Positions 16,994-51,401 of a stretch of DNA of 51,420 nucleotides are shown here, in pieces. This DNA comes from Patescibacteria group bacterium (GTDB taxonomy: Bacteria > Patescibacteriota > Minisyncoccia > Minisyncoccales > Staskawiczbacteraceae). How positions within the stretch are numbered: position 1 is the stretch's first letter; every line of letters starts with the position of its first letter. Location: NCBI GenBank assembly GCA_038065835.1, contig JBBTQB010000007.1:1-51420 (forward strand), in the 5' to 3' direction. Both the position numbers and the translations under genes were made by a program. The notes below the pieces were generated by a model, which saw only the letters and a list, made by a program, of their open reading frames with translations, was not told where the DNA came from and searched no databases.

Positions 16994-17611
16994 CTACTCA
17001 TAATCTTTAGAAATTCCGTCTTTGTCATACTGCAAATTGGTCAGCAGAATCATAAAGGGGGTTAAAAATAATATCTTAGAATCCAGCCACAAAGACCAAT
17101 GTTCTATGTACCAAATGTCCCATATTATCCTTTGTTTCCAGGGGAGATTATTGCCTCCCTTTATTATATCCATATTTGTAATCCCAGGTTTCGCCAAAAG
17201 TCTTTTCTTTTCGAGCTCTGTATATTTGACCACTTGGTGGGGCGAAGCCGGCCTAGGGCCCACCAAAGACATGCCATCAAAAATAACATTTATAAGCTGA
17301 GGAATTTCATCTAGTCCAACTCTTCTTATAACTTTCCCAACTCTTGTGACTCTTGGGTCGTCTTTAGATGTTTCATATCTCATGCCAATATGTTCTGTGT
17401 TTTGCTGCATTGTTCTAAATTTTAGCATTATAAATTCTTTTCCATTCCTACCTACCCTTTTTTGCTTAAAAATCACGGGGCCTTTTGAATCAAGCTTTAT
17501 CAAGATAGCTATAACTAAACATAATGGACTCAATAATATAAGCAAAAAAATAGAAAATAAAAGATCTATTATATCTTTTATAACGTACTGAATAGTTAGG
17601 CTTTTTTTCAC
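16994..17611 (-). CDS. Small monotopic phosphoglycosyltransferase, copy 2
   Basis: 205 aa. KLDSKGPVIFKQKRVGRNGKEFIMLKFRTM and DEIPQLINVIFDGMSLVGPRP. GTG start at 17611 lies inside the repeat terminus. Confidence 0.85.
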   Translation of the reverse strand: MKKSLTIQYVIKDIIDLLFSIFLLILLSPLCLVIAILIKLDSKGPVIFKQKRVGRNGKEFIMLKFRTMQQNTEHIGMRYETSKDDPRVTRVGKVIRRVGLDEIPQLINVIFDGMSLVGPRPASPHQVVKYTELEKKRLLAKPGITNMDIIKGGNNLPWKQRIIWDIWYIEHWSLWLDSKILFLTPFMILLTNLQYDKDGISKDYE

Positions 17612-17731
17612 GCCGTTAGAAGTCTGTTCTTATGGTACTTTAAAGTTATTTTGAACAGATATGTTACTTTAATATTAATTTGTTAGTACGTAACAGGAAA
17701 ATTTCAATGAAATTTTCCTGTCTAACGGGGT
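17610..17731. repeat. Family-B stop-to-start palindromic element (short copy)
   Basis: Termini ACGCCGTTAGAAGT (17610-17623) and GTCTAACGGGGT (17720-17731). The upstream TGA (17732-17734) abuts it and the downstream GTG (17611-17609) is embedded. Internal perfect hairpin CAGGAAAATTT-caatg-AAATTTTCCTG. Confidence 0.85.
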
Positions 17732-19624
17732 TCATCTTACTTTTCTTGCTTCCAAATAAAAGTTATGTGAAAAAATAATAAACAATGGTAAAAAAAGATT
17801 AAAAAAACGGTGAATTCTAAGCTTTATAATAACATCTGCCATAAAATCCAAAAAACTTGGCATAACATAAACACCTTTTAAATTAAATCTATCAAAACCA
17901 TTTTGCCTCATCAAGCCTTTGAATCTGTAGGGATTGTATCTTATTAACTTTTCTTTCTGTAATAAAATATCTAAAGCAAAAACATTTAAAGTAACAATAA
18001 TTAAAAGTCCGTCTTTTTTTAAAACTCTTTTTAATTCACCAATAGCTCTTTCTGAATCAGATAAAACTTGAAGAACTCCTTTACAAATAACAATATCAAA
18101 AAAACCATCTTCAAACGGCAAATTATAAGCATCAGCCACTTGGAAATTTATACTTTTGTCTTTATTTTTTGCAGCTTCAATAATTTCTGGAATATAATCG
18201 ACTCCATAGCATTGAAAACCTAATTCTAATAAGGGCATCAGGGTGTCTCCAAAACCACAGCCGACATCAAGTATTTTATTTTTTAAATTATAATCTCTAC
18301 TTCCAATATGCTTTTTAAAATAATCAAAAAAATAAACATTATCATTTCTAAATCCGGTTTTAGAATGAAACATTATTTCATGCTCTTTTTTCCCGTCCCT
18401 GGCAGCCCGACTGTATTTTGAAAACCATTCATCTTCAAGTCTAGTATTAAGTTTTTTCTTGATTAACTCTTCATAGGCAGAACCCAATCTTTCAAGAACT
18501 ATTTTTTTGCTGAATTTTTGAATAACTTTTTTTCTCCCCATGATTCCCATCTCTCTTGCTATTTCTGGGTTATCTAAAAGATAACCTATGGCACTCACGA
18601 TTTTGTTCGGGTTATTTACGGGAATTAATATGCCTGTTTTGCCATCATCAACTGCCTCAAGAATTCCTCCGGTATTAGTGGCTATGACCGGCCTCTCCAT
18701 TGACGAAGCTTCTAATATTACTGCTCCCAAACCTTCCCTGCGAGACGGCAAAACAAAAATATCCATCACCGAATACAGCTCCTGAACATCAGTCCTATCT
18801 CCCAGGAAAATAACATTACTGCCAAAGCCATAGGATTTAATTGTTTCAAGGTTAATGGGATCTTTTTTTTCCGGCTCAAGGGGCCCTACAACCAAAAGCA
18901 CGACATTATCGTATTTCTTTAAAATTTCCTGAAAAGCTTCGAATAATTCCAAGTACCCTTTTTCAACTACTAATCTGGCAACAATTCCAACTATTCTTTT
19001 ATCATCAGGTATACTTAATTCTTTTTTCTTCCTCTTTTTGAATTCATCGTTAAAGTTTTGAGGATTGAATCTATCAGTATCTATATCCCTCCCCAGGTAC
19101 AAAAGAACATCGGCAGAGAATATTTTATGTTCTTTGGCTTTGTTAATTATATCGTCACTTATTGAAAAAACTACTGATGAATATTTTCCAGTTATCTTTT
19201 GGAGCAACAGGTAAAGTTTTTTCTGCCAATAAGGAAGAGATCTGGGTAAGTCAGATCCAAATCCATGTAAAGTATTTAAAATAATGGGAACTCCCGCCAA
19301 GTAAGCTGATAACTGGCCGTAAATTTCAGCTTTGGGAGTATGAACATGAACAATATCAAACTTTTCTTTCTTGAAATAAAAAAATAACCTTATAAAAGCC
19401 AGTAAATCAGAAAATGGACTTATCATTCTTCTAGATAGTTTTATTGTTTTAACTTTAATGCCTTCGTTTTCTAGGCTCTGAATCCACTTTCCAGGGCTAC
19501 AAACAGCATGAACATCATAATCTTGAGATCGCAAAAACTTTAACTGGTCAAACAGCATAAATCTTAAGGTAAAGTCGGAGCTGACAACTTGGCAGATTTT
19601 GACATTTCTTTCTTTATTGTTCAT
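17732..19624 (-). CDS. Fusion: GT4 glycosyltransferase + class I SAM methyltransferase + C-terminal membrane helix
   Basis: 630 aa. GT4 E-x7-E region EGLGAVILEASSMERPVIATNTGG. Methyltransferase motif I ILDVGCGFGDT. Hydrophobic tail FFNLFLPLFIIFS. Confidence 0.75.
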   Translation of the reverse strand: MNNKERNVKICQVVSSDFTLRFMLFDQLKFLRSQDYDVHAVCSPGKWIQSLENEGIKVKTIKLSRRMISPFSDLLAFIRLFFYFKKEKFDIVHVHTPKAEIYGQLSAYLAGVPIILNTLHGFGSDLPRSLPYWQKKLYLLLQKITGKYSSVVFSISDDIINKAKEHKIFSADVLLYLGRDIDTDRFNPQNFNDEFKKRKKKELSIPDDKRIVGIVARLVVEKGYLELFEAFQEILKKYDNVVLLVVGPLEPEKKDPINLETIKSYGFGSNVIFLGDRTDVQELYSVMDIFVLPSRREGLGAVILEASSMERPVIATNTGGILEAVDDGKTGILIPVNNPNKIVSAIGYLLDNPEIAREMGIMGRKKVIQKFSKKIVLERLGSAYEELIKKKLNTRLEDEWFSKYSRAARDGKKEHEIMFHSKTGFRNDNVYFFDYFKKHIGSRDYNLKNKILDVGCGFGDTLMPLLELGFQCYGVDYIPEIIEAAKNKDKSINFQVADAYNLPFEDGFFDIVICKGVLQVLSDSERAIGELKRVLKKDGLLIIVTLNVFALDILLQKEKLIRYNPYRFKGLMRQNGFDRFNLKGVYVMPSFLDFMADVIIKLRIHRFFNLFLPLFIIFSHNFYLEARKVR

Positions 19625-21898: not shown

Positions 21899-23503
21899 TT
21901 ATAATTTTAGATACTTCTCTAAAAGTGGCACTTTGACGTTCTTTAATCTATCAAGTCCGAAGGGTAGTAGGCATAAAAGGGCTAAAAATGCCGGCATTCT
22001 AATTCTAGTTATCATGCCAAAATTATTTATGTAAAGAGACAAAACTCCAAAAATAAGAAGACTGAAAATAATTAAAGGCAAGATAACTTTGTAATTTACT
22101 TTTATGGATTTTAGCATACCCTTTATAATAAAGAATAGCAGAAAATACCAGGGGATTACTTCTGGCAAAACAAAAAGGTGTTTGGCTTTTTTTAACTGCC
22201 AGGGGAAGGGACCCAAAATAGAGTAAACAAAAGATAAGGAATTGCTTTTAAGAAATGAAATGGGATTGTCAAAACCAGCATCTATTACAATTGAGGAATC
22301 TTGAGCTATTGTACTTTTACCCTCTGGCAGAGGTATGGTTTCTTCTGCTTTTTTGGTTTCTTGAAGCTGAGATTTTGGGGGATAAGCTAGTTCTCTATAA
22401 CCAACAATTGTTTGGGGATTTAAAAAATTTTTAATAGCTTTTACACCCATATATCCTTGAGTAGCTCCGTCTAATGGAGCAATTCTCGGCAAAAAACCAA
22501 GAAGAAGAATCATTATAATTCCATAAATAACTCTTTTTTTAATTCTTAAATCACAAAAGCTAAACCAACAAATTATGAAACTTAAAATAAGTGCATAACC
22601 AATATAAAAACGGAAATGGGTCACTCCAGCCAACACAATATAGAAAATCAAAAAATTTAACCAGGAGAATTTTTTAATTATCTTTAAGGTCAACAACAAC
22701 CCAATAACGCTCAGTAAAACAACTAAAGCATCTTTTAATAACAAACTTCCGTAGAACGCCAAAGAGGGGTAAAAACAAACAATTAATCCCACAATGAAAC
22801 CTTCTTTTTTTGAACGACCTATTTGACAAACCAATAAAAAAACAAATACGGCTATGAGGGCAACTATCCAAGCGTTAAGCAACTGACCCATCAGCATGCT
22901 GGGAACTGTTAGAAGATAAACATAACCAATAGCAAGCGGATAGTAGTGGACCAGCGGCAAACCTAAGAATGGTAAACCTTCTAAAGAAAAATTTCCCGCA
23001 GAAACTCTTTTTGATATTTCTAGTGCAATTGCATGATATTCATTGAAATCTCCCCTTCCCTCACTGAATGGTTGAAAATCTGCATAATATACAAAAACAA
23101 CCATTACGATATGAATCAAAAAAACAATTAAAAAGAGTAGGGTTAAAAACTTTACCGTTTCCCCGCCCGCATCGCTATGCCAGCCTGCATTACCTGCGTT
23201 ATTATGTCTGGCAGGCGAAGCATTGCGGGCAGGCTTTTCTTTTACCCAGTTAGAAAGCTCTGCTTCTTTTTTCTCTTTTTCTAAAAAAGGACTATTGTTT
23301 GTTAAAATATTGCCCTTTCTAACGGGGTTTATTGTGTTAATAAAAAATAAAGCAATAGAAGATAAAAAAACAACAAATATAGCTCCTACAGCCAAATCTT
23401 TGTCAATCAAGGAAAGCAAAGCTAATATAATACAGATTAATATAACTTTATGATACCTTGAAAATGATTCTAAAAAATCCACCTCGTTAGAAGTTATGGG
23501 CAA
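21899..23503 (-). CDS. Polytopic membrane protein, GT-C-like (ArnT/PMT-type) or glycan polymerase/ligase; N-terminus built from repeats
   Basis: 534-aa ORF with at least 9 hydrophobic helices. An acidic loop GDFNEYH follows the helix FLTLLFLIVFLIHIVMVVFVYY. The first ~125 codons overlap three repeat copies, so the start is uncertain (TTG 23503 or GTG 23482). Confidence 0.4.
   Translation of the reverse strand: MPITSNEVDFLESFSRYHKVILICIILALLSLIDKDLAVGAIFVVFLSSIALFFINTINPVRKGNILTNNSPFLEKEKKEAELSNWVKEKPARNASPARHNNAGNAGWHSDAGGETVKFLTLLFLIVFLIHIVMVVFVYYADFQPFSEGRGDFNEYHAIALEISKRVSAGNFSLEGLPFLGLPLVHYYPLAIGYVYLLTVPSMLMGQLLNAWIVALIAVFVFLLVCQIGRSKKEGFIVGLIVCFYPSLAFYGSLLLKDALVVLLSVIGLLLTLKIIKKFSWLNFLIFYIVLAGVTHFRFYIGYALILSFIICWFSFCDLRIKKRVIYGIIMILLLGFLPRIAPLDGATQGYMGVKAIKNFLNPQTIVGYRELAYPPKSQLQETKKAEETIPLPEGKSTIAQDSSIVIDAGFDNPISFLKSNSLSFVYSILGPFPWQLKKAKHLFVLPEVIPWYFLLFFIIKGMLKSIKVNYKVILPLIIFSLLIFGVLSLYINNFGMITRIRMPAFLALLCLLPFGLDRLKNVKVPLLEKYLKL
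23161..23234. repeat. Family-C G+C-rich imperfect palindrome, intragenic
   Basis: GCCCGCA...TGCGGGC, TCGC/GCGA and GCCAG/CTGGC pairings. Shares the words GGCGAAG, GCGGGCAGGC and CCTGC with 8210-8268. Read in frame as ...ARNASPARHNNAGNAGWHSDAGGE... Confidence 0.7.
23244..23328. repeat. Family-B-type element, intragenic, opposite orientation
   Basis: Termini ACCCAGTTAGAAAG (23244-23257) and CTTTCTAACGGGGT (23315-23328), 13/14 complementary. Read in frame as NPVRKGNILTNNSPFLEKEKKEAELSNWV. Confidence 0.75.
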
Positions 23504-23670
23504 AATGTCATATGGGACATTTTGCTTACTCTTTGTTAATTTTTATTATTTACCTTATTTTAACCCATTGAAGTTTTAATTATCCTCATACAAACCCCGT
23601 TAGGGGTTTGTTTCTTTTGCATTTACCTTAAAACTCCTTGACCTCTAACGGGGCAAACTTCTAACGGAGT
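23481..23670. repeat. Family-B stop-to-start palindromic element (long copy 2)
   Basis: Termini ACCTCGTTAGAAGT (23481-23494) and ACTTCTAACGGAGT (23657-23670). Nested pair ACCCCGTTAGGGG (23594-23606) and ACCTCTAACGGGG (23641-23653). TGA of the upstream GT4 at 23671-23673 abuts it. High similarity to 33804-34027. Confidence 0.9.
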
Positions 23671-25634: not shown

Positions 25635-25730
25635 TTATAATAATTTTAATAAAAATTGAAAGGCATAACATCATAGCTCTGATTAATAGACCTTACCACA
25701 AAAATCAGCTTATTTTCAAGTATTTATATT

Positions 25731-25897
25731 GTGAGCTTGGTGAATAATGCCATATTGGCGTCTTTATCTAAAATATCGGCTGCAAATTGGTAAAGATTAT
25801 TCAACGATGCCCTCTGGCATCGCCTCATAATCTTTACCAATTTTCGCTGTGATATTTTAAACAAATCCATCCAAAGAGCATTATTCACCAAGCTCAC
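25731..25897. repeat. 167-bp nested palindrome upstream of the SDR/GT4 sub-operon
   Basis: Perfect 20-bp inverted repeat GTGAGCTTGGTGAATAATGC (25731-25750) / GCATTATTCACCAAGCTCAC (25878-25897). Inside it are the 16-bp pair AATTGGTAAAGATTAT / ATAATCTTTACCAATT and the core GATGCC-ctct-GGCATC. Confidence 0.9.
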
Positions 25898-25921
25898 GTT
25901 ATAATGTACAAACATGGCGCG

Positions 25922-27729: not shown

Positions 27730-28882
27730 TTTCTAGAAACTGCCACTCTTTAATAATATTTTTAATATCAAAATCCAATGCTCTTTTTATTGATTTTTCT
27801 TTAAGTTCATTTAATAAATTTTCATCTGAAAGGAGTTTTACCGCGGCCTCGCTTAATTTATCTTTATCCCTTGGCCTTACCAATGTCCCGTATTCTGCAT
27901 ATTCAATATCTTCTGTTTCAAAACCGAAATTAGTATCGGGAGCTAAAATCTCCCTTGGTCCAGATTTACAATCAAAAGAAACAATGGGTAGACTGCAAAC
28001 CATTGCCTCTAACAGAACATAGGGCAAACCCTCCCACAAAGAAGATAATAAAAAAAGTTTTGACCTTGCAAGAAATTTAAATGGGTTTTTCTGCCACCCA
28101 AGAAAGTAAATATCTTTATCTAAACCTAATCTTTTTGAAAGTTCTTTTAATTCTCTCTCCAGCTCTCCCTGTCCGAGAATCACTAATTTTACATTTTTTA
28201 TTTCCTTCTTTATCTTTAAAAATGCTTCTATTAGGCTTTTTTGATTCTTTTGAAAAGTAAGTCTGCCCACATTTATAATAACAGGATTATCAAATATTTC
28301 TTGATACTTTGTTTCAAGAGGTTCTTCTGCTAATTTTTCAATTTCTTTTACATTTAAGGGGTTGTAAATTACTTTGATTTTATTAGCTTTTACCCCAAAA
28401 TTCTCAATTAAATCTTTAGCGGAAGCTTTTGACACATCAATAACAAAATATGCTTTGTTAAAAAACCTCTTAATAAAAAATTTATAAATTCTGCCGCCTA
28501 AATCATAACAAGAATTGGACAAAAATCCTTCTACTCTGACAATAGCTCTTTGCTCCCTGCCTGCCGGCAGGCAGGCGGAAAGAATATTGATGACGTTGGC
28601 AGGATGCCCGAAGCTTATTACATAGTCTGGATTCTCTGTTTTAACTATTTTCCTAAACTTCAGTAAACCCAGTAAATAATGGAAAATCTTGGAAAACGGA
28701 TTTTTTAGCGGTAAGGGAATATTTAAGGAAATTAAATTTCCTTTATAAGGATAAGAAACTTCTTTTTTAAATAAAACAATAACCCTCTCCATGGACTCGG
28801 GCAAATTTAAAGAAAGTTCTGAAACTACCCTTTCTCCCCCGCCAATGCTTAGAGTTGGTATTAAAAATAAAACCTTCTTCAT
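27716..28882 (-). CDS. GT4-family glycosyltransferase
   Basis: Start taken at MKKVLFLIPTLSIGGGERV (ATG 28882); the longer ORF to 28945 reads through the 51-bp palindrome. EGLPYVLLEAMVCSLPIVSFDCKSGPREIL. Carries the 20-nt palindrome at 28556-28575 in frame. Confidence 0.8.
   Translation of the reverse strand: MKKVLFLIPTLSIGGGERVVSELSLNLPESMERVIVLFKKEVSYPYKGNLISLNIPLPLKNPFSKIFHYLLGLLKFRKIVKTENPDYVISFGHPANVINILSACLPAGREQRAIVRVEGFLSNSCYDLGGRIYKFFIKRFFNKAYFVIDVSKASAKDLIENFGVKANKIKVIYNPLNVKEIEKLAEEPLETKYQEIFDNPVIINVGRLTFQKNQKSLIEAFLKIKKEIKNVKLVILGQGELERELKELSKRLGLDKDIYFLGWQKNPFKFLARSKLFLLSSLWEGLPYVLLEAMVCSLPIVSFDCKSGPREILAPDTNFGFETEDIEYAEYGTLVRPRDKDKLSEAAVKLLSDENLLNELKEKSIKRALDFDIKNIIKEWQFLENANN
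28556..28575. repeat. 20-nt perfect palindrome CCTGCCTGCCGGCAGGCAGG (copy 1, inside GT4)
   Basis: Identical to 28997-29016. Read as ACLPAGR. Confidence 0.95.
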
Positions 28883-28897
28883 GAAATATCGATGCTT

Positions 28898-28948
28898 AGA
28901 GTGCAGGATTCGAACTATCATCAATTGATAGTTCGAATCCTGCACTCT
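28898..28948. repeat. Family-A 51-bp perfect palindrome (23-bp arms, 5-nt loop)
   Basis: AGAGTGCAGGATTCGAACTATCA-tcaat-TGATAGTTCGAATCCTGCACTCT. Contains the TGA stop of the methyltransferase and ends 15 nt before the GT4 ATG. Confidence 0.95.
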
Positions 28949-29946
28949 TTAGCGAATAGGCACATACGAATTATTGGCTGCATTAGTATGCATTTGCCTG
29001 CCTGCCGGCAGGCAGGTATATTGGTATCGCGGTTTATTTGTAGTTCAACAAACATTATTCCGTTATTGCGACCCGTTAATCTTCCAAACGTCCACAAAAA
29101 AAACGCCGGGACAAATCCTATTAAATACATCTTAATCTTTGCCAGAATATACAGTACCTTGGCAAGCAGAGAAGATTTTTTGTTTTCAATAGAATTGCTA
29201 GCCGTCCTAGCTGCTAATCCTGACCTAAATCTGCCGTCTATTGCGCCCATTATCATTTTAAACTGCTCTACATAGCAAAAATCCGATATTTCAAAGTTAA
29301 TTTTTGAAAATAAATTAGAAATTGCCTCTTTATTCCACCTTGTGAGGTGATGTGGGGGGAAATCCCAATTATTCCAATTTGCCAGCATGCGTTCCCTAGA
29401 TGGAGTGCTTATTATCATCTTTCCCCCCGGTTTTAACAACTTCTTTGCGCTTTTGATGAATTTCAAAGGATCTTGGACGTGCTCTATCACTTCAAAAAAG
29501 ACAACATAATCAAACAAGGGCAAATTTTGCCTTTTAAAAAAACCTTCAAATGGTTCAGCAAATACATTTTTTAAGCCAAAATATTTTTTGGCTAATTCAA
29601 TGCCTTTTCGGTCAAAATCAACTCCAAAAACCGTATATCCTCTTTTTTCCAGTTCAGCAATAAACTCTCCCGAGCCGCAACCTAGTTCAAGTACGGCAGT
29701 ACCTGCTGGAAACTGCAAATACTTCTGTAAAAACTTTTTGTGGGACCCGCGATATATCTTTGGGCCTATTACATTTTTTATTTCGTAATCGCTTGTCTCT
29801 TCATACCAATGAGCTCCTGGGTTTTTCGCGCCCCAAAAGAATTGCACCTTACAATCTTTGCATTGGTACATAAAAAACTCATTATATTTCATGATGGGTA
29901 TTAGTTCTCTGCTTTCTTTACAAATTGGGCAAACATTGGGATTCAT
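28921..29946 (-). CDS. Zinc-ribbon + class I SAM methyltransferase with membrane helix; repeat-encoded C-terminus
   Basis: CPICKES...CKDCKVQ. Motif I VLELGCGSGEF. Helix MYLIGFVPAFFLWTF. The last ~30 codons run through the 20-nt palindrome and the 51-bp palindrome. Confidence 0.7.
   Translation of the reverse strand: MNPNVCPICKESRELIPIMKYNEFFMYQCKDCKVQFFWGAKNPGAHWYEETSDYEIKNVIGPKIYRGSHKKFLQKYLQFPAGTAVLELGCGSGEFIAELEKRGYTVFGVDFDRKGIELAKKYFGLKNVFAEPFEGFFKRQNLPLFDYVVFFEVIEHVQDPLKFIKSAKKLLKPGGKMIISTPSRERMLANWNNWDFPPHHLTRWNKEAISNLFSKINFEISDFCYVEQFKMIMGAIDGRFRSGLAARTASNSIENKKSSLLAKVLYILAKIKMYLIGFVPAFFLWTFGRLTGRNNGIMFVELQINRDTNIPACRQAGKCILMQPIIRMCLFAKECRIRTIN
28997..29016. repeat. 20-nt perfect palindrome CCTGCCTGCCGGCAGGCAGG (copy 2, inside methyltransferase tail)
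   Basis: Identical to 28556-28575. Read in a different frame as PACRQAG. Confidence 0.95.
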
Positions 29947-31439
29947 TTTTGTGATGTCAAAAACCTTTTTATTTCCTTGCAGATAAACTGGTAATTATTT
30001 TTATCATTTGGGTCTTTCGCATAAAGGATATCTGCCAAGATACTGTTCCTCAAATAAGAAATAATGAATCTCATATTAATTTCCTCCAAATTCACCCCGT
30101 TAGAGGTTTGCTTTGTTTCATTTTCTCTCAAGACTCCCTGATCTCTAATGGGGTTGGGTAAATCCCAATTTATTTGAAGGTCTCTTTTTATTTTTTCCTT
30201 TAAGTCTTCAAAGTTTACTACCTTTTGGCATAAAGGATGATAAGAATAAAATACGTTTCCCAAAACATAGACTGGTTTTCCCTGTATTGCCGCTTCCATG
30301 CCAACCGTGCTGGTCATGGTAATTACGCCTATTGAATTAGCAATAACGTTTGGCGTTGATTCTTCTGAAGACAACAATACAGCATTGGGTATTTTTTTTA
30401 TCTCTTCGTAAAACTGATTGGTCCTTGAGCCAATAGAGCCCGGATGCTCTTTTAAACATAATTTATAAGGAAATGGCAGGGTGGCTGAAACATATTTTAT
30501 GGTAGCTAACTGGTTTGAATAATAGGTTGCTAAAACTAAAGTTGAAGCTTCCGGCTCGTATTGAATAGGAAAAAAGAAATATTTGTCTTTTGAGCTAAGC
30601 TTATTAAATATATTTCCCTGGAGTTTGATTTTAATATTTTTTTTAATGGTTCTAAATGGAGCCATAAGGCTTCTCCTTAACACTGCCTCGCTTTCGTAGT
30701 CAAATCTCTTAACTTTGGACCTATCCAAAAAATACCTGAAGAAAACGTAGCTGGATTCTTTAAGTCTTCTTAAGTAATGTCTAATATAATCAAATAAACT
30801 AAATCTTACTTTGACTATATAATAAGAAGAATAAATGGTTTTGTGAGATATGAACTTTTTTATGAAATTTTTGGCAAATTCTGTTTCGCCCGGCAAAAAA
30901 TCTTCCTTTTTCAAATTTTTGAAATTATCTTCAAATTTTGAGCAGGTCCATTCTAAGTCCCAAATATCTATCCTACCCGGGAAGCGCGATTCGGCGATGC
31001 CACAAAAAGGAATATTATTTTTTTTAGTAAAATAGTAAGCCACCTCGCCAAAAAGCCCTGGCGGCGGTTCCCCAATTACAATATCTGGCTTTTCATAACT
31101 AAAAATGTAGTCAAAAAATTGATAAAGTTGATTTACTATATCCAAAGATTGATTGTAATTGTACCTATTATAAAGATTAAACCTTTCAAAAACAGTAAAA
31201 AGCTCTCTCCAGCTCAAATTCCCAAAGTCTTTTTTTGAAGAATCGTAGTTTTTAATGCACCAATCTATTTTTGATAAAAACTTGGAATTTTTAGGAAAAA
31301 ACTTGCCCTTTTCATACTCAGCAATCTTGCTGTTAAAAACAACCAAACATTCATCTCCTTCTTTTGTAAGCTGATGGGAAATCTTGCCTAAAAATTCAAA
31401 TAAATATGACGCATCATTTATTAAAAATAGCCATTTCAT
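29943..31439 (-). CDS. Capsule polysaccharide biosynthesis protein (KpsS/LpsZ-like, Capsule_synth family)
   Basis: 498 aa. YFFFPIQYEPEAS...CLKEHPGS...ITMTSTVGMEAAIQGKPVYVLG pattern. Carries the in-frame repeat 30094-30154 near the C-terminus. Confidence 0.5.
   Translation of the reverse strand: MKWLFLINDASYLFEFLGKISHQLTKEGDECLVVFNSKIAEYEKGKFFPKNSKFLSKIDWCIKNYDSSKKDFGNLSWRELFTVFERFNLYNRYNYNQSLDIVNQLYQFFDYIFSYEKPDIVIGEPPPGLFGEVAYYFTKKNNIPFCGIAESRFPGRIDIWDLEWTCSKFEDNFKNLKKEDFLPGETEFAKNFIKKFISHKTIYSSYYIVKVRFSLFDYIRHYLRRLKESSYVFFRYFLDRSKVKRFDYESEAVLRRSLMAPFRTIKKNIKIKLQGNIFNKLSSKDKYFFFPIQYEPEASTLVLATYYSNQLATIKYVSATLPFPYKLCLKEHPGSIGSRTNQFYEEIKKIPNAVLLSSEESTPNVIANSIGVITMTSTVGMEAAIQGKPVYVLGNVFYSYHPLCQKVVNFEDLKEKIKRDLQINWDLPNPIRDQGVLRENETKQTSNGVNLEEINMRFIISYLRNSILADILYAKDPNDKNNYQFICKEIKRFLTSQK
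30094..30154. repeat. Family-B core hairpin, intragenic and in frame
   Basis: ACCCCGTTAGAGGT (30094-30107) and ATCTCTAATGGGGT (30141-30154). About 80 percent identical by eye to the inner unit of 33951-34010. Translated NPIRDQGVLRENETKQTSNGV. Confidence 0.85.
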
Positions 31440-32871
31440 GGATTAAACTCTTTAAAAATATAAATTCCTTACTACTAAAACCTTTTAATAATGCCATTAA
31501 TGCTAAATAAACAATAATGCTAAATACTATTGATAGTATTAATCCCGGCAATCCCTGCAAATCAATCAAAAGAATAAAAAAAGCTATAAAAATAGAGGCT
31601 ATTGTGGTTTTTAAAACAAAAGCCCATTCTACCTTGAAACGGAATTCTCTAAAAGCAAAATAATGCATCAATAAGAGGGCGCATAAATAAGCTAAAAATG
31701 TGGTGATGGCAGCCCCCAAAATACCTAAAAAGGGAATGAAAATAATGTTTAACCCTAAATTTAAAAAAGCGGCTGCAGCCCAAATAGATGCAATGATTTT
31801 TGTTTTTTTTGCCAAAACCAAAATTTGGCTGAAAAAATAAGTAAGGCCGTACAGGAAAATACCCGCAGCTATAAAAGGAACAACAAAATAAGCGTTATTG
31901 GCAATTTCTCTTGTGGAAAAAAGTATAAGCAGCTTTCTTGAAAGCACCGATATGACAAAGGCAGCAGGAAGTACAATCCCCCAAAAATATTTTAGTGAAT
32001 TTCTCAAATAGTTTTGGACTTGGACCATATTGTCTTCATCAAAAAACTTGGGTAAAATCACCGATAGCATAAAAGAGAGAGGAAAAATAAAAGTGGTAAG
32101 AAGATAAGCAATTGAGTAAGCAGGCACGTAATAACCCACAAAAATTATGCCCAAAAAAAACGCTATTAAATATCTGTCTGAAGAGGTAACTATCCAGTAA
32201 AAAAGGCCGTCAGCCATAGTGGGAAGCCCAAAAGACAAATATTTTTTAACCAGTGAAAAATCAGGAAACTTAAACCCGATTTTTTTAATTATGTAAAAAA
32301 GCAAAGATATGAAAAAAAGAATTTTAACCAATAAATAAGAAATTACCACCCCGAGAATACCGTACCCCAAGAAGATAACAATCGTTAACAGTATTATTTC
32401 GGAAGTCATTTTTGAGGCCATAAACCAAAAGTATTTCCCTATTTCTCTTTTTGCCCTGATTGCAACCAAAAAAATGCTGTTTAATGACTCAAAAATAACT
32501 ATCAAAGACAGTATTTTGACAAAAGTTTGGCTAATTTTTAAAAATGAAGCCACGTAATCAGAAAACGCCATCAAAAACAAAGATATTGCCAAATTGATAC
32601 AAAACATCAAAAAAACCGAAGAATAAACTCCTTCTTTAACATTTTTTTCGTCTTTATCCCCCGGGATAAATCTTATCAGGGCTTCGTGCATTCCTAAAAA
32701 GGCAACAGAAACCACCAATCCTACAGTAACCCTTATTTGAGACCAAATACCATAATCTACTGCACCCAAGGTTTTTGTTATTAAAGATAAAAAAATTAAA
32801 CCTTGAGCCATCCCTAAAAAATCAAGGAATCCGACAGTAAATATATTTTTTGCAAATTTAATGTACGACAT
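31414..32871 (-). CDS. Wzx-like oligosaccharide flippase (MOP superfamily), copy 2
   Basis: 485 aa, about 12-14 hydrophobic helices. Confidence 0.6.
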   Translation of the reverse strand: MSYIKFAKNIFTVGFLDFLGMAQGLIFLSLITKTLGAVDYGIWSQIRVTVGLVVSVAFLGMHEALIRFIPGDKDEKNVKEGVYSSVFLMFCINLAISLFLMAFSDYVASFLKISQTFVKILSLIVIFESLNSIFLVAIRAKREIGKYFWFMASKMTSEIILLTIVIFLGYGILGVVISYLLVKILFFISLLFYIIKKIGFKFPDFSLVKKYLSFGLPTMADGLFYWIVTSSDRYLIAFFLGIIFVGYYVPAYSIAYLLTTFIFPLSFMLSVILPKFFDEDNMVQVQNYLRNSLKYFWGIVLPAAFVISVLSRKLLILFSTREIANNAYFVVPFIAAGIFLYGLTYFFSQILVLAKKTKIIASIWAAAAFLNLGLNIIFIPFLGILGAAITTFLAYLCALLLMHYFAFREFRFKVEWAFVLKTTIASIFIAFFILLIDLQGLPGLILSIVFSIIVYLALMALLKGFSSKEFIFLKSLIHEMAIFNK

Positions 32872-33805
32872 TTATTATTTTACCATTGTTATTCGCGCTT
32901 TTTTTTATGGCAAACAAAACTTTTAGAACTTCCAATCCGTCCTGCCCCGTGCTTTGAGGCCGTTCTCTTTTTTCTAAGCAAGAGACAATATGCCAAACCA
33001 TTTGAGCCATTAAACTTCTCTGGCTTCCTATTTTTAAATTATTGTAACTTATCTGCATCCCTAATTTTTTAAGAAATAATTTATTCTTTTCACCATAGAA
33101 AGACCATTCGGTAAGTTTTTGCTTTTCGCTTACAGATTGAAGAAATGCCCTTGCTCCACTTTTAAAGAAGATTATTGCATCAACGTTTTTATCTCTTTTG
33201 GGGTTGGATGTTAAATTATTGTAAAAACCAATTACCTCCTTTACTTCGCCTAGAAACATTCTCAGTAAATCCATAATATGGGTTCCATTATTAAAAAGAC
33301 CATTGTGGTAAGCCGAATAAGATTGCAACACGTTTCCCAAAATTCCATTCTTAACTTTTCTTTGCCATCTTTGTATTAAAGAATCAAAGTGCCTTGAGTG
33401 GTTTACAAACAAAAGGCATTTTTTCTGACGACACAATTTAACCATCTCTTTGGCTTCCCCAAGAGAATCAGCAATTGGTTTTTCACAAACTATTGCTTTT
33501 ACTCCCAAGCCCGCTGCCATTTTAACAAACTTATAGTGGGTATTAGTATGAGTCGCTACCGAGACAATATCGGGTTTGGTTTCTTTAAGCATCTTTTTGG
33601 CTGATGAATATAAAGAGACGTCTGGAAAAAGTTTCTTAGCTTTTTTTAATTTTTCAGAATCAATATCACAAAGACCTACCAATTCAATTTTGGAGTTTTT
33701 AAAATAAGCCGCGGCGTGAGTAGCTGGCCTTACGTTTCTTGAGTAATTCCATTCTTGGGCTCCAATCCGACCGCAACCAATAACTACTGCTTTGTATTTT
33801 TTCAC
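32858..33805 (-). CDS. Gfo/Idh/MocA-family sugar-nucleotide oxidoreductase
   Basis: 315 aa. N-terminal Rossmann KAVVIGCGRIG. GTG start at 33805 embedded in the repeat terminus. Confidence 0.8.
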   Translation of the reverse strand: MKKYKAVVIGCGRIGAQEWNYSRNVRPATHAAAYFKNSKIELVGLCDIDSEKLKKAKKLFPDVSLYSSAKKMLKETKPDIVSVATHTNTHYKFVKMAAGLGVKAIVCEKPIADSLGEAKEMVKLCRQKKCLLFVNHSRHFDSLIQRWQRKVKNGILGNVLQSYSAYHNGLFNNGTHIMDLLRMFLGEVKEVIGFYNNLTSNPKRDKNVDAIIFFKSGARAFLQSVSEKQKLTEWSFYGEKNKLFLKKLGMQISYNNLKIGSQRSLMAQMVWHIVSCLEKRERPQSTGQDGLEVLKVLFAIKKSANNNGKIINVVH

Positions 33806-34027
33806 CCCGTTAGAAGTATGGGCAAAATGTTAATCATGAGACCTGGTCTTATCAACGAGGCCGGGTCTCGTTGTGACAATTTGCTTGCTCTTTGTTAATA
33901 ATTATCATATTAAATTTTGACTCATTAAAGCTTTTTACTACCTTATCCAAACCCCGTTAGAGGTTTGTTTCTTTTGCATTTACCTTAAAGCTCCTTGACC
34001 TCTAACGGGGCAAACTTCTAACGGGGT
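33804..34027. repeat. Family-B stop-to-start palindromic element (long copy 1, with nested insert)
   Basis: Termini ACCCCGTTAGAAGT (33804-33817) and ACTTCTAACGGGGT (34014-34027). Nested pair at 33951-33964 / 33998-34010. A 44-nt G+C-rich insert (33831-33874) splits a hairpin that is intact in the 23481-23670 copy. Confidence 0.9.
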
Positions 34028-34894
34028 TCATTCTTTTACACAATCAACCAAGAAAGCATTGGCCATGAAATGGCCGTACCAATCTTTTGATTTTTTTACT
34101 TCCAATTGTCTTTTAAATCTTTCTAACTTATCTTTATATTTATTTTCTATCAATCTAGGTAGGGGGAAAAAGCTATAAAAATATTTCTGCAATAACCTGA
34201 GTTTGTACTTAGCGAGTTCTTCACCAATCGTTAAGGGGTTGGTTGTTTCAACATAAATATTATCCCTAGCAATCTTAGCTGAATAATCTGGCTTGTTTGG
34301 GTGTGTTATTAGGCTCTCTAGGTCCTTAACTATGCCTTTGCCTAATAACTTTTCTAACCTCAACGGTTCAAAAAACTTCTCTTCAAAAAAATAAATGGTG
34401 TATTTATTGAAAGTGAATAAATCAAAAAGAGCGTTTTGGAAGGTAGCCATCATATGGCCTTTGGGTTTTAGTAAGCGATGAATTTTTATATACAATTGGC
34501 TTCTTTTTTTTGGAGGCAAATACTGAAATACTCCCATTAGAATAACAAAATCAAAAGAATTTTTAGGCAAGCTACCTAATTCTTTGATACTTCCCCTAAT
34601 AATGCTGTCTTCACTAAAACCCGCTTCTTTGAGACGTCCTTTTGCTAATCTGAATAATTCCTTGCCTTTTTCAATTCCCTTAGCTTTAATACCGAGCTTT
34701 AGCATTTTCAATAGCAAAGCTCCCCCGCCGCATCCAAAATCTAAGACAGTAATCTTGCTTTTATTTTTTTCTCTATACTCTGGCAGGATTAACTCAAGAA
34801 ATATTTCGTCTCTGGGAGCATGAGCTGAAAAATAACCTTCGGCTAAATCTTCAAAATACTTTTTTGTTTTTTTGGCATTATATTTATGAACCAT
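34028..34894 (-). CDS. Class I SAM-dependent methyltransferase
   Basis: 288 aa. Motif I VLDFGCGGGALL. Confidence 0.7.
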   Translation of the reverse strand: MVHKYNAKKTKKYFEDLAEGYFSAHAPRDEIFLELILPEYREKNKSKITVLDFGCGGGALLLKMLKLGIKAKGIEKGKELFRLAKGRLKEAGFSEDSIIRGSIKELGSLPKNSFDFVILMGVFQYLPPKKRSQLYIKIHRLLKPKGHMMATFQNALFDLFTFNKYTIYFFEEKFFEPLRLEKLLGKGIVKDLESLITHPNKPDYSAKIARDNIYVETTNPLTIGEELAKYKLRLLQKYFYSFFPLPRLIENKYKDKLERFKRQLEVKKSKDWYGHFMANAFLVDCVKE

Positions 34895-51369: not shown

Positions 51370-51401
51370 AGAGTGCAGGATTCGAACTATCATCAATTGA
51401 G
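51370..51401. repeat. Family-A repeat, solo left arm (AGAGTGCAGGATTCGAACTATCATCAATTGAG)
   Basis: The first 31 nt are identical to 28898-28928. Inverted copy of 19-51. Confidence 0.9.

Follow-up and report, generated by a model that had tools for sequence, protein, structure and literature searches.

The Rickettsia palindromic elements (RPEs; Ogata et al. 2000) are repeats of ~150 bp that, according to PMC10969869, are confined to Rickettsia and its relatives. Bacterial transposable elements of the miniature inverted-repeat type (MITEs), e.g., Correia/NEMIS, ERIC, and QMITE1/2 of Coxiella, are typically 100-400 bp long, and occasional in-frame MITEs occur in enterobacteria, cyanobacteria, and Coxiella (PMC5896051, PMC10969869). 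Repetitive extragenic palindromes (REPs) are characterized in PMC3733652 as extragenic repeats of 20-40 bp with a GTAG or CGTC tag and no target duplication. Here, we analysed the first 51,420 nt of contig JBBTQB010000007.1 (hereafter, the window) from a groundwater bacterium of the Patescibacteria (candidate phyla radiation, CPR), in which a capsule synthesis gene contains a short hairpin-forming segment in frame. Our analysis suggests that this segment is very probably a decayed MITE copy that integrated into a loop-coding part of the Capsule_synth gene, and that members of its family occur in about a dozen phyla.

The preliminary description of this DNA had placed a hairpin at 30094-30154 within an uninterrupted open reading frame (ORF), and both points held. 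The left arm ACCCCGTTAGAGGT (30094-30107) is followed by 33 nt and the right arm ATCTCTAATGGGGT (30141-30154), and the core of the element plus one of its 4-nt flanks adds up to 63 nt, i.e., 21 codons, read without a stop on the minus strand as residues 429-449 (NPIRDQGVLRENETKQTSNGV) of a 498-aa protein. The sole Pfam match of this product is Capsule_synth (PF05159, E = 5.7e-12, residues 278-404). The insert-bearing protein is identical in three independent assemblies, namely that of the window and two more.

A homolog search retrieved at least 239 proteins, nearly all from metagenome-assembled genomes (MAGs) of the Patescibacteria/Parcubacteria type, and most of them are 472-483 aa long versus 498 aa here. 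We aligned the 33 best or longest homologs (47-74% identical), including the seven longest of the 120 listed. Consistent with the earlier idea of a lineage-specific indel, a 21-column gap lay opposite the segment in 33/33 homologs, and none of them carried it at the protein level. The sequences on either side are conserved (...KIKxDL and NLEEINxRFIxSYxRN...), and the few homologs of comparable total length owe their extra length to N- or C-terminal extensions. In the closest relative (P0002, 72% identical), encoded on a contig (L003) that shares its gene order with the window at 27.7-36 kb, 8 residues stand opposite 29 in the window protein; this syntenic ortholog is without the insert.

We then considered the position of the segment in the protein. 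An AlphaFold2 model based on the homolog alignment was GT-B-like (mean predicted local distance difference test score, pLDDT, 84.6; predicted template modelling score, pTM, 0.85), and Foldseek recovered a two-Rossmann GT-B/epimerase fold. Residues 426-447 formed a coil with pLDDT <50 between helices 410-421 and 451-464. In the model, the insertion site is a surface loop, predicted to be disordered.

An independent copy was found at another site of the same gene family. The homolog P0066 (51% identical; Nealsonbacteria MAG GCA_030616085, locus L001) contains an insert of 21 residues, NPVRDSRDREKIEKGGISNGV, which reads NPVRD...ISNGV. The underlying DNA is a perfect hairpin (ACCCCGTTAGAGAT-33 nt-ATCTCTAACGGGGT) flanked by the duplication TAAA/TAAA.

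Species-representative genomes were scanned with the pattern CCCCGTTAGARRT-N25-45-AYYTCTAACGGGG, every core length from 51 to 71 nt being allowed equally. At least 119 loci matched versus ~0.1 expected by chance, as estimated from the specified bases and the database size; the family statistics given below are drawn from 121 copies in the 119 matched loci listed. The 13-bp terminal repeats CCCCGTTAGARRT and AYYTCTAACGGGG are present in all window copies and in the 121 copies listed. According to the record titles, the hosts comprise many Patescibacteria lineages, Planctomycetota (Pirellulales, Phycisphaerae, Sedimentisphaerales), Omnitrophota, Nitrospirota, Elusimicrobia, Cloacimonadota, Thermodesulfobacteriota/Deltaproteobacteria, Acidobacteriota, Ratteibacteria, and a few Pseudomonadota and Clostridia MAGs; the count of about a dozen phyla is approximate, as MAG labels can be wrong. 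The G+C content of the loci ranges from 31 to 63%, and several MAGs have copies on several contigs (e.g., UBA1562 with L006, L037, L052, L053, L082, and L091). Besides cores of 51-71 nt, there are variants of 120-222 nt.

The CCCC..GGGG core is flanked by a 4-nt direct repeat that is perfect in 77/120 copies. Per-position identity of the two flanks was 0.77-0.88 within these 4 nt versus 0.16-0.46 immediately outside. The consensus of the duplication is YNNR, with TAAA/TTTA occurring 31 times, TCAA/TTGA 18 times, and TGAA/TTCA 5 times. Further examples are TTTG/TTTG, TGAG/TGAG, CTTA/CTTA, and CTAA/CTAA, and copies such as TTTG/TTTG and CTAA/CTAA indicate that the flank is a duplication and not an extension of the palindrome. 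Alternative ends (ACCCC...GGGGT with a 2-bp duplication) were rejected: where CCCC is preceded by G or GGGG is followed by C, it is the direct repeat that is kept, not the complementarity. Recent movement is apparent from identical 71-nt copies with different flanks at two loci of one Elusimicrobia MAG (L056, L112) and from nested copies in the window that carry duplications of their own. Judged from sequence, such features typify a small transposon that has terminal inverted repeats and cuts its target with a 4-bp stagger.

The copy in the capsule gene belongs, by its sequence features, to this MITE-like family as a decayed member. It aligns with a 59-nt subfamily that occurs in other Patescibacteria (L001, L039, L041, L064, L085, L119); where copies of this subfamily lie in genes, the coding strand is the purine-rich one and specifies a peptide rich in K, E, and R. 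The resemblance to an intergenic unit at 33951-34011, previously put at ~80%, held as a family match with a lower identity of 46/61 = 75% (left arm 14/14, right arm 11/14, loop 21/33). Both mismatches between the arms are transitions, as had been reported, and their earlier attribution to GC-to-AT decay is secure for one only. The C-to-T change in ...AATGGGG was found in the genic copy alone, whereas the GAGGT/ATCTC difference may be a subfamily polymorphism rather than decay, other 59-nt copies having GAGAT on both arms. Considering that the flanks match at only two of four positions and that the arms differ twice, the genic copy is old and probably immobile.

The length and reading frames of the elements are compatible with coding. 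In 91/121 copies, the core has a length of 2 mod 3 (favoured lengths 53, 59, 62, 65, 68, and 71 nt), so that a core plus its 4-bp duplication adds a multiple of three. Whichever way round the terminal repeats lie, two of the three frames through them contain no stop, namely xPVR[NDS]...[IT]SNG[VA]x and TPLE[IV]...[FL]LTG. Among the 108 copies flanked by 300 nt or more on both sides, 29 lie in stop-free stretches that extend at least 150 nt both ways, and the length preserves the frame in 29/29 of these in-ORF copies. The PVR...SNG frame is used by 24/30 in-ORF copies listed. Outside ORFs, 34/58 copies still follow the length rule versus one third expected. Across the family, the loops avoid stop codons: 55/89 copies have a PVR frame without stops in both orientations, versus 31.7+/-4.2 with shuffled loops (maximum 45 in 500 shuffles). 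Coding compatibility is thus a property of the family as a whole and not just of the copies that survived within genes.

By Pfam, the genes with in-frame copies include those for SecA, DNA polymerase III alpha (DnaE), UvrA, Mur ligase, Tex, RACo, a sulfatase, and a PMT_2/TPR glycosyltransferase. The insert in UvrA is an exact gap versus solved UvrA structures in an alignment that otherwise scores 1,226 bits. A minimal copy of 33 nt, ...NPVRNSSISNGV..., with little beyond the two terminal repeats, is located in the IF-2 gene of a member of the Jorgensenbacteria (L014, ~2205-2237) and is read in frame as …KINPVRNSSISNGVKI…. In two Pirellulales MAGs, copies occupy the same site of orthologous sulfatase genes (L046 6846-6907 and L090 3890-3951) with diverged loops (…NPVRSNPDKLGDPSSVQISNGVNHN… and …NPVRSNTDKLGDTYPLQTSNGVNHN…), which points to an old copy that would have been inherited vertically in frame. 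L040 and L071 likewise have flanks in common.

The window itself is rich in related units (Table 1). It contains the arm motif CCCCGTTAGAGGT 11 times, allowing up to 2 mismatches, versus 0.4 expected, and none of 100 shuffles reached 11. In total there are six units, all with terminal inverted repeats, including a fourth copy (17611-17730) beyond those of the preliminary description. Four copies (17611, 33805, 33952, and 23595) have perfect duplications, and the two nested inner copies (the 33952-34010 unit and 23594-23654) are identical at 59/61 positions.

Table 1 Coordinates of the element copies and associated features in the window
Feature	Position	Strand	Details
Host gene, 498-aa Capsule_synth (KpsC/KpsS-type), GT-B-like two-Rossmann fold	29943..31439	minus	Frame intact; Pfam, AlphaFold2, Foldseek
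In-gene element with both 4-nt flanks	30091..30157	minus	Flanks TTCA (30091-30094) and TTGG (30154-30157)
59-nt core of in-gene element, CCCC...GGGG	30095..30153	.	Alignment with 59-nt Patescibacteria subfamily
Terminal repeats of in-gene core	30095-30107 and 30141-30153		CCCCGTTAGAGGT and ATCTCTAATGGGG; loop 33 nt, pyrimidine-rich on plus strand
Peptide strings of window protein across insert			...DLPNPIRDQGVLR... and ...ETKQTSNGVNLEEINMR; predicted from ORF
Loop peptides of 59-nt subfamily			L001 SRDREKIEKGG; L064 YKNTEEVREKQ; L085 YTNGEKAKKGH; window QGVLRENETKQ
120-nt copy	17611..17730	.	Degenerate terminal repeats CGCCGTTAGAAGT / GTCTAACGGGG; perfect TTCA/TTCA duplication
Second intergenic composite	23482..23669	.	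Flanks TCCA/TTCA; nested 59-nt element 23595-23653 with CAAA/CAAA duplication
Intergenic composite	33805..34026	.	Outer repeats CCCCGTTAGAAGT; perfect TTCA/TTCA duplication (33801-33804, 34027-34030)
59-nt inner element beside right terminal repeat of outer element	33952..34010	.	Perfect CAAA/CAAA duplication (33948-33951, 34011-34014)

All genes of the window are on the minus strand and form one long co-directional operon, and each of the three intergenic copies (17611-17730, 23482-23669, 33805-34026) spans a gene junction exactly. The 120-nt copy, for instance, occupies the gap between a sugar-transferase gene (16994..17611) and a GT4-methyltransferase gene (17732..19624). At these junctions, the TGA stop of the upstream gene lies within one of the two duplication copies (TGAA on the gene strand), while the GTG start of the downstream gene consists of the last G of the element and the TG of the other duplication copy. 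For the GFO/IDH/MocA oxidoreductase gene at 32858..33805, this GTG is the sole possible start because the Rossmann motif begins at residue 5. The composite at 33805..34026 is missing from the orthologous junction of L003, where the same two genes are ~33 nt apart with no element between. The junction arrangement recurs in L093 (6326-6387) and L109 (5145-5207). This suggests insertion into overlapping stop/start junctions, and insertions into such ...TGAA... sites are presumably tolerated for the same reason as the in-frame ones.

The comparisons above demonstrate the insertion, the family membership, the family-level duplication, the length rule, the stop avoidance, and the loop location. A 4-bp staggered target cut would leave the YNNR duplication, and the core plus duplication would add whole codons, so that an insertion in the right register would simply be translated. 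In the capsule gene, 59+4 = 63 nt would thereby have produced a hydrophilic, disordered loop of 21 residues between two helices of the GT-B-like enzyme. The reading frame is kept and the gene is presumably functional, and the insert would be neutral for the enzyme. In the best-supported model, a DDE-type transposase that cuts with a 4-bp stagger at YNNR would have mobilized the element in trans.

We searched for this enzyme in the loci (~0.9 Mb). Terminal repeats with up to 2 mismatches, 100-6000 nt apart, and with matching 4-mers were paired, and clusters of ORFs were compared between loci. The clusters comprised housekeeping families only (type IV pilus ATPases, GT4, ABC transporters, IF-2, V-ATPase), and the ORFs adjoining unpaired half-sites encode TPR, Memo/AMMECR1, and LptF/G proteins. 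The longer outer elements of the window, considered as a lead to a parent insertion sequence (IS), have internal sequence without a match outside the window. A phage vector was rejected because only 2 matches were found in 2.9 million viral contigs, i.e., the element is not phage-enriched. Regarding described transposases, 4-bp target duplications are made by IS5 and by IS1380/piggyBac-like elements. The CC(C)...GG(G) ends and the TAGA-containing repeat may resemble piggyBac (TTAA target, CCCTAGAAAG) and ISEcp1 (CCTAGA...), a likeness that serves as a lead only. IS701 shares the 4-bp target duplication, but its published end consensus (---YACT-Y--YR, PMC2266710) does not fit CCCCGTTAGAAGT, and it was rejected as the parent.

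Several observations weigh against the transposon interpretation. The duplication around the genic copy (TTCA/TTGG) matches at only 2/4 positions, so that transposition is argued from the family. The translation of the insert is a prediction from the ORF. Pairing of terminal repeats revealed no autonomous copy in the ~0.9 Mb of loci, the pairs being separate small copies only, and in none of them did repeats with matching 4-mers enclose an ORF large enough for a transposase. Clustering of 634 ORFs of at least 200 aa revealed no recurrent transposase-like ORF beside the copies, nor was a transposase of any family found close to them in these loci. In some family members (L015, L059, L069, L080, L086, L089, L116), the loop consists of two GC-rich hairpins of differing sequence that form a three-way junction with the terminal stem, which hints at a structural selection that the transposon model leaves unexplained. 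Finally, MITEs do not usually keep a 13-bp repeat conserved over about a dozen phyla, and the ends could be recognized by some system that is not an IS transposase.

Spread without a DDE transposase, through a HUH enzyme of the type encoded by RAYT (REP-associated tyrosine transposase) genes, an attC-like site-specific recombinase, or template switching and microhomology copying between hairpins, would fit the unusually broad host range and the transposase not being found in the loci searched. The arms contain GTTAGAA/TTCTAAC, which we take to be similar to the core sites of integrons (GTTRRRY/RYYYAAC). However, the variable 4-nt duplication (TAAA, TCAA, TGAA, CTAA, etc.), the same on both sides, is the signature of a staggered cut and is not expected from insertion by HUH enzymes or tyrosine recombinases. 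The elements also have no GTAG/CGTC tag. An integron attC site was rejected since the order GTTAGAA...TTCTAAC is the reverse of RYYYAAC...GTTRRRY and the copies are single and dispersed, in genes or at junctions, not in cassette arrays. We consider such a mode of spread improbable.

To the same small degree, the hairpin might have been retained or exapted for a role of RNA or DNA in the operon, e.g., as mRNA stabilizer, RNase site, pause or attenuator, or protein-binding cruciform, with the loop as a by-product. The intergenic copies fold very stably (energies of -13.9 and -11.3 kcal/mol with z-scores of -5.9 and -3.7, the former values being those of the inner element 33952..34010 as DNA), three of them lie exactly at operon junctions, and some family members have structured loops. 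By contrast, the genic copy reaches only -4.9 kcal/mol in the mRNA sense (z = -0.47; 58/200 shuffles equally good), where its two arm mismatches become A-C. That this fold is no better than those of shuffles argues against a retained role as RNA structure; the plus strand does retain a fold when taken as single-stranded DNA (-7.0 kcal/mol, z = -2.1). No Rfam 15 family matched anywhere in the window at the gathering threshold, and the sub-threshold matches over 33700-34100 were two miRNA models with 21 and 18 bits versus gathering scores of 99 and 63. Moreover, the multiple-of-three rule and the stop avoidance point to a constraint from protein coding.

The same two properties speak against the idea that the 63 nt are absent from the mature protein due to intron-like removal from the mRNA or ribosome bypass. 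In phage T4 gene 60 and the yeast-mitochondrial 'byp' elements, matching take-off and landing sequences flank the skipped gap, and direct repeats around a hairpin are formally like such sites. Yet removal would impose neither a multiple of three nor freedom from stops, both of which are strong here; in-ORF copies keep the frame in 29/29 cases, and the repeats flanking the genic copy have decayed while the ORF was kept. Bypass or removal is thus highly improbable. Least credible, and effectively refuted, is a reading of the 21 residues as coding sequence, either ancestral or lineage-specific, whose likeness to the intergenic repeat is coincidental or reflects gene-derived intergenic copies: the segment is open and in frame and the flanking 4-mers of the genic copy match at 2/4 positions only, but it is missing in 33/33 homologs, the P0066 copy sits at a different site, and the same unit is found with target duplications in unrelated genes and intergenic DNA of about a dozen phyla.

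The window contains other repeats. A perfect 20-nt GC palindrome (CCTGCCTGCCGGCAGGCAGG), unrelated to the main element, is present at 28556-28575 and 28997-29016 (2 copies, 0 expected). The first copy is in frame in a GT4 glycosyltransferase gene (…SACLPAGREQ…), at a 7-aa gap of the 76%-identical L003 ortholog; the second lies in the C-terminal tail of a methyltransferase (…IPACRQAGK…) without an L003 counterpart (341 vs 320 aa). The capsule protein homolog P0011 has a private 14-aa insert (ADGQSGQAGLARVS) near its C terminus (alignment columns 525-538), which may stem from this GC-palindrome family. A further repeat, AGAGTGCAGGATTCGAACTATCATCA, forms a near-perfect palindromic double copy at a methyltransferase/GT4 gene junction (28898-28951), and single copies in inverted orientation at 26-51 and 51370-51395, i.e., both contig ends, probably explain the assembly breaks. 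This repeat looks like a tRNA T-arm; ARAGORN found no tRNA in the window. Between 14690 and 17200, several blocks (repeat families D3, D4, D5, D7) are 72-77% identical between two neighbouring regions spaced 1,450-1,508 nt apart, which indicates that a gene pair of the polysaccharide cluster was duplicated in tandem. An inverted repeat at 25724-25904 has arms of 54 nt (78% complementary) and a 73-nt spacer that encloses a 28-nt inverted repeat (25784-25843).

Selfish DNA that resides in frame in protein genes has so far largely been seen as a peculiarity of Rickettsia. The window presents a CPR case with clean hallmarks, and the family does likewise in housekeeping genes of many phyla. This provides a tractable system for addressing how loops enter proteins, how a transposon becomes harmless inside genes, and how it crosses phylum boundaries. 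In practical terms, the PVR...SNG peptides and the GTG starts at element ends will mislead gene callers, alignments, and phylogenies in CPR bacteria, Planctomycetota, and Omnitrophota, while the 13-bp repeats offer a simple tag for tracing the transposase sought. Going further, we lean slightly towards the view that the copies represent an undescribed pan-bacterial superfamily of 'coding-proof' micro-transposons, whose architecture would be shaped for survivable insertion into genes. Such elements would have added loops to the surface of essential proteins (SecA, DnaE, UvrA, IF-2, Mur ligase) in about a dozen phyla and could split overlapping stop/start junctions harmlessly, mobilized by a yet-unfound enzyme, possibly piggyBac/IS1380-like, with end recognition conserved across phyla. 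Full-text literature searched by DNA string, encoded peptides, and MITE or in-frame terms yielded no description of the element, which may nonetheless have been described before.

How the family relates to known systems can now be specified. With REPs and bacterial interspersed mosaic elements, it shares small palindromic repeats and a high copy number. Membership in the REP/RAYT system was rejected because the arms (CCCCGTTAGA) have no tag, a duplication is present, and 29/108 scorable copies lie inside long ORFs.

The preliminary description had seen the genic hairpin as an analogue of RPEs from a very different lineage. What stands of this is the mode of action, i.e., a palindrome tolerated in frame in a surface loop; the confinement to one lineage does not stand, given the spread over about a dozen phyla. 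Like RPEs, the elements are short palindromic repeats located in frame in unrelated, often essential genes as well as in intergenic copies, and the extra peptide is compatible with fold and function, although here translation is predicted from the ORF. In contrast to RPEs, the family has a core of only 51-71 nt, spans about a dozen phyla, and possesses sharp 13-bp terminal repeats and a 4-bp YNNR duplication. By analogy, then, the element 'works like' an RPE and is not a member by host, size, or architecture, a distinction drawn from the description of RPEs.

The terminal inverted repeats and the 4-bp target duplication amend the analogy towards MITEs. The family shares with them these two features, the absence of coding capacity of its own, the dispersed copies, and the occasional in-frame fusions with ORFs. 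It differs from MITEs in being far shorter and in not using a TA dinucleotide target, as most bacterial MITEs do; a Correia/IS630-type MITE was rejected for this reason, since the duplication here is 4 nt instead of TA. Further differences are the 2-mod-3 length rule and the avoidance of stops in both orientations, which hold even in non-coding copies, a host range far beyond the usual single genus, and a parent IS not found in ~0.9 Mb. The single copy in the capsule gene is a coding-tolerant MITE of a known kind, and the family to which it belongs is unusually widespread.

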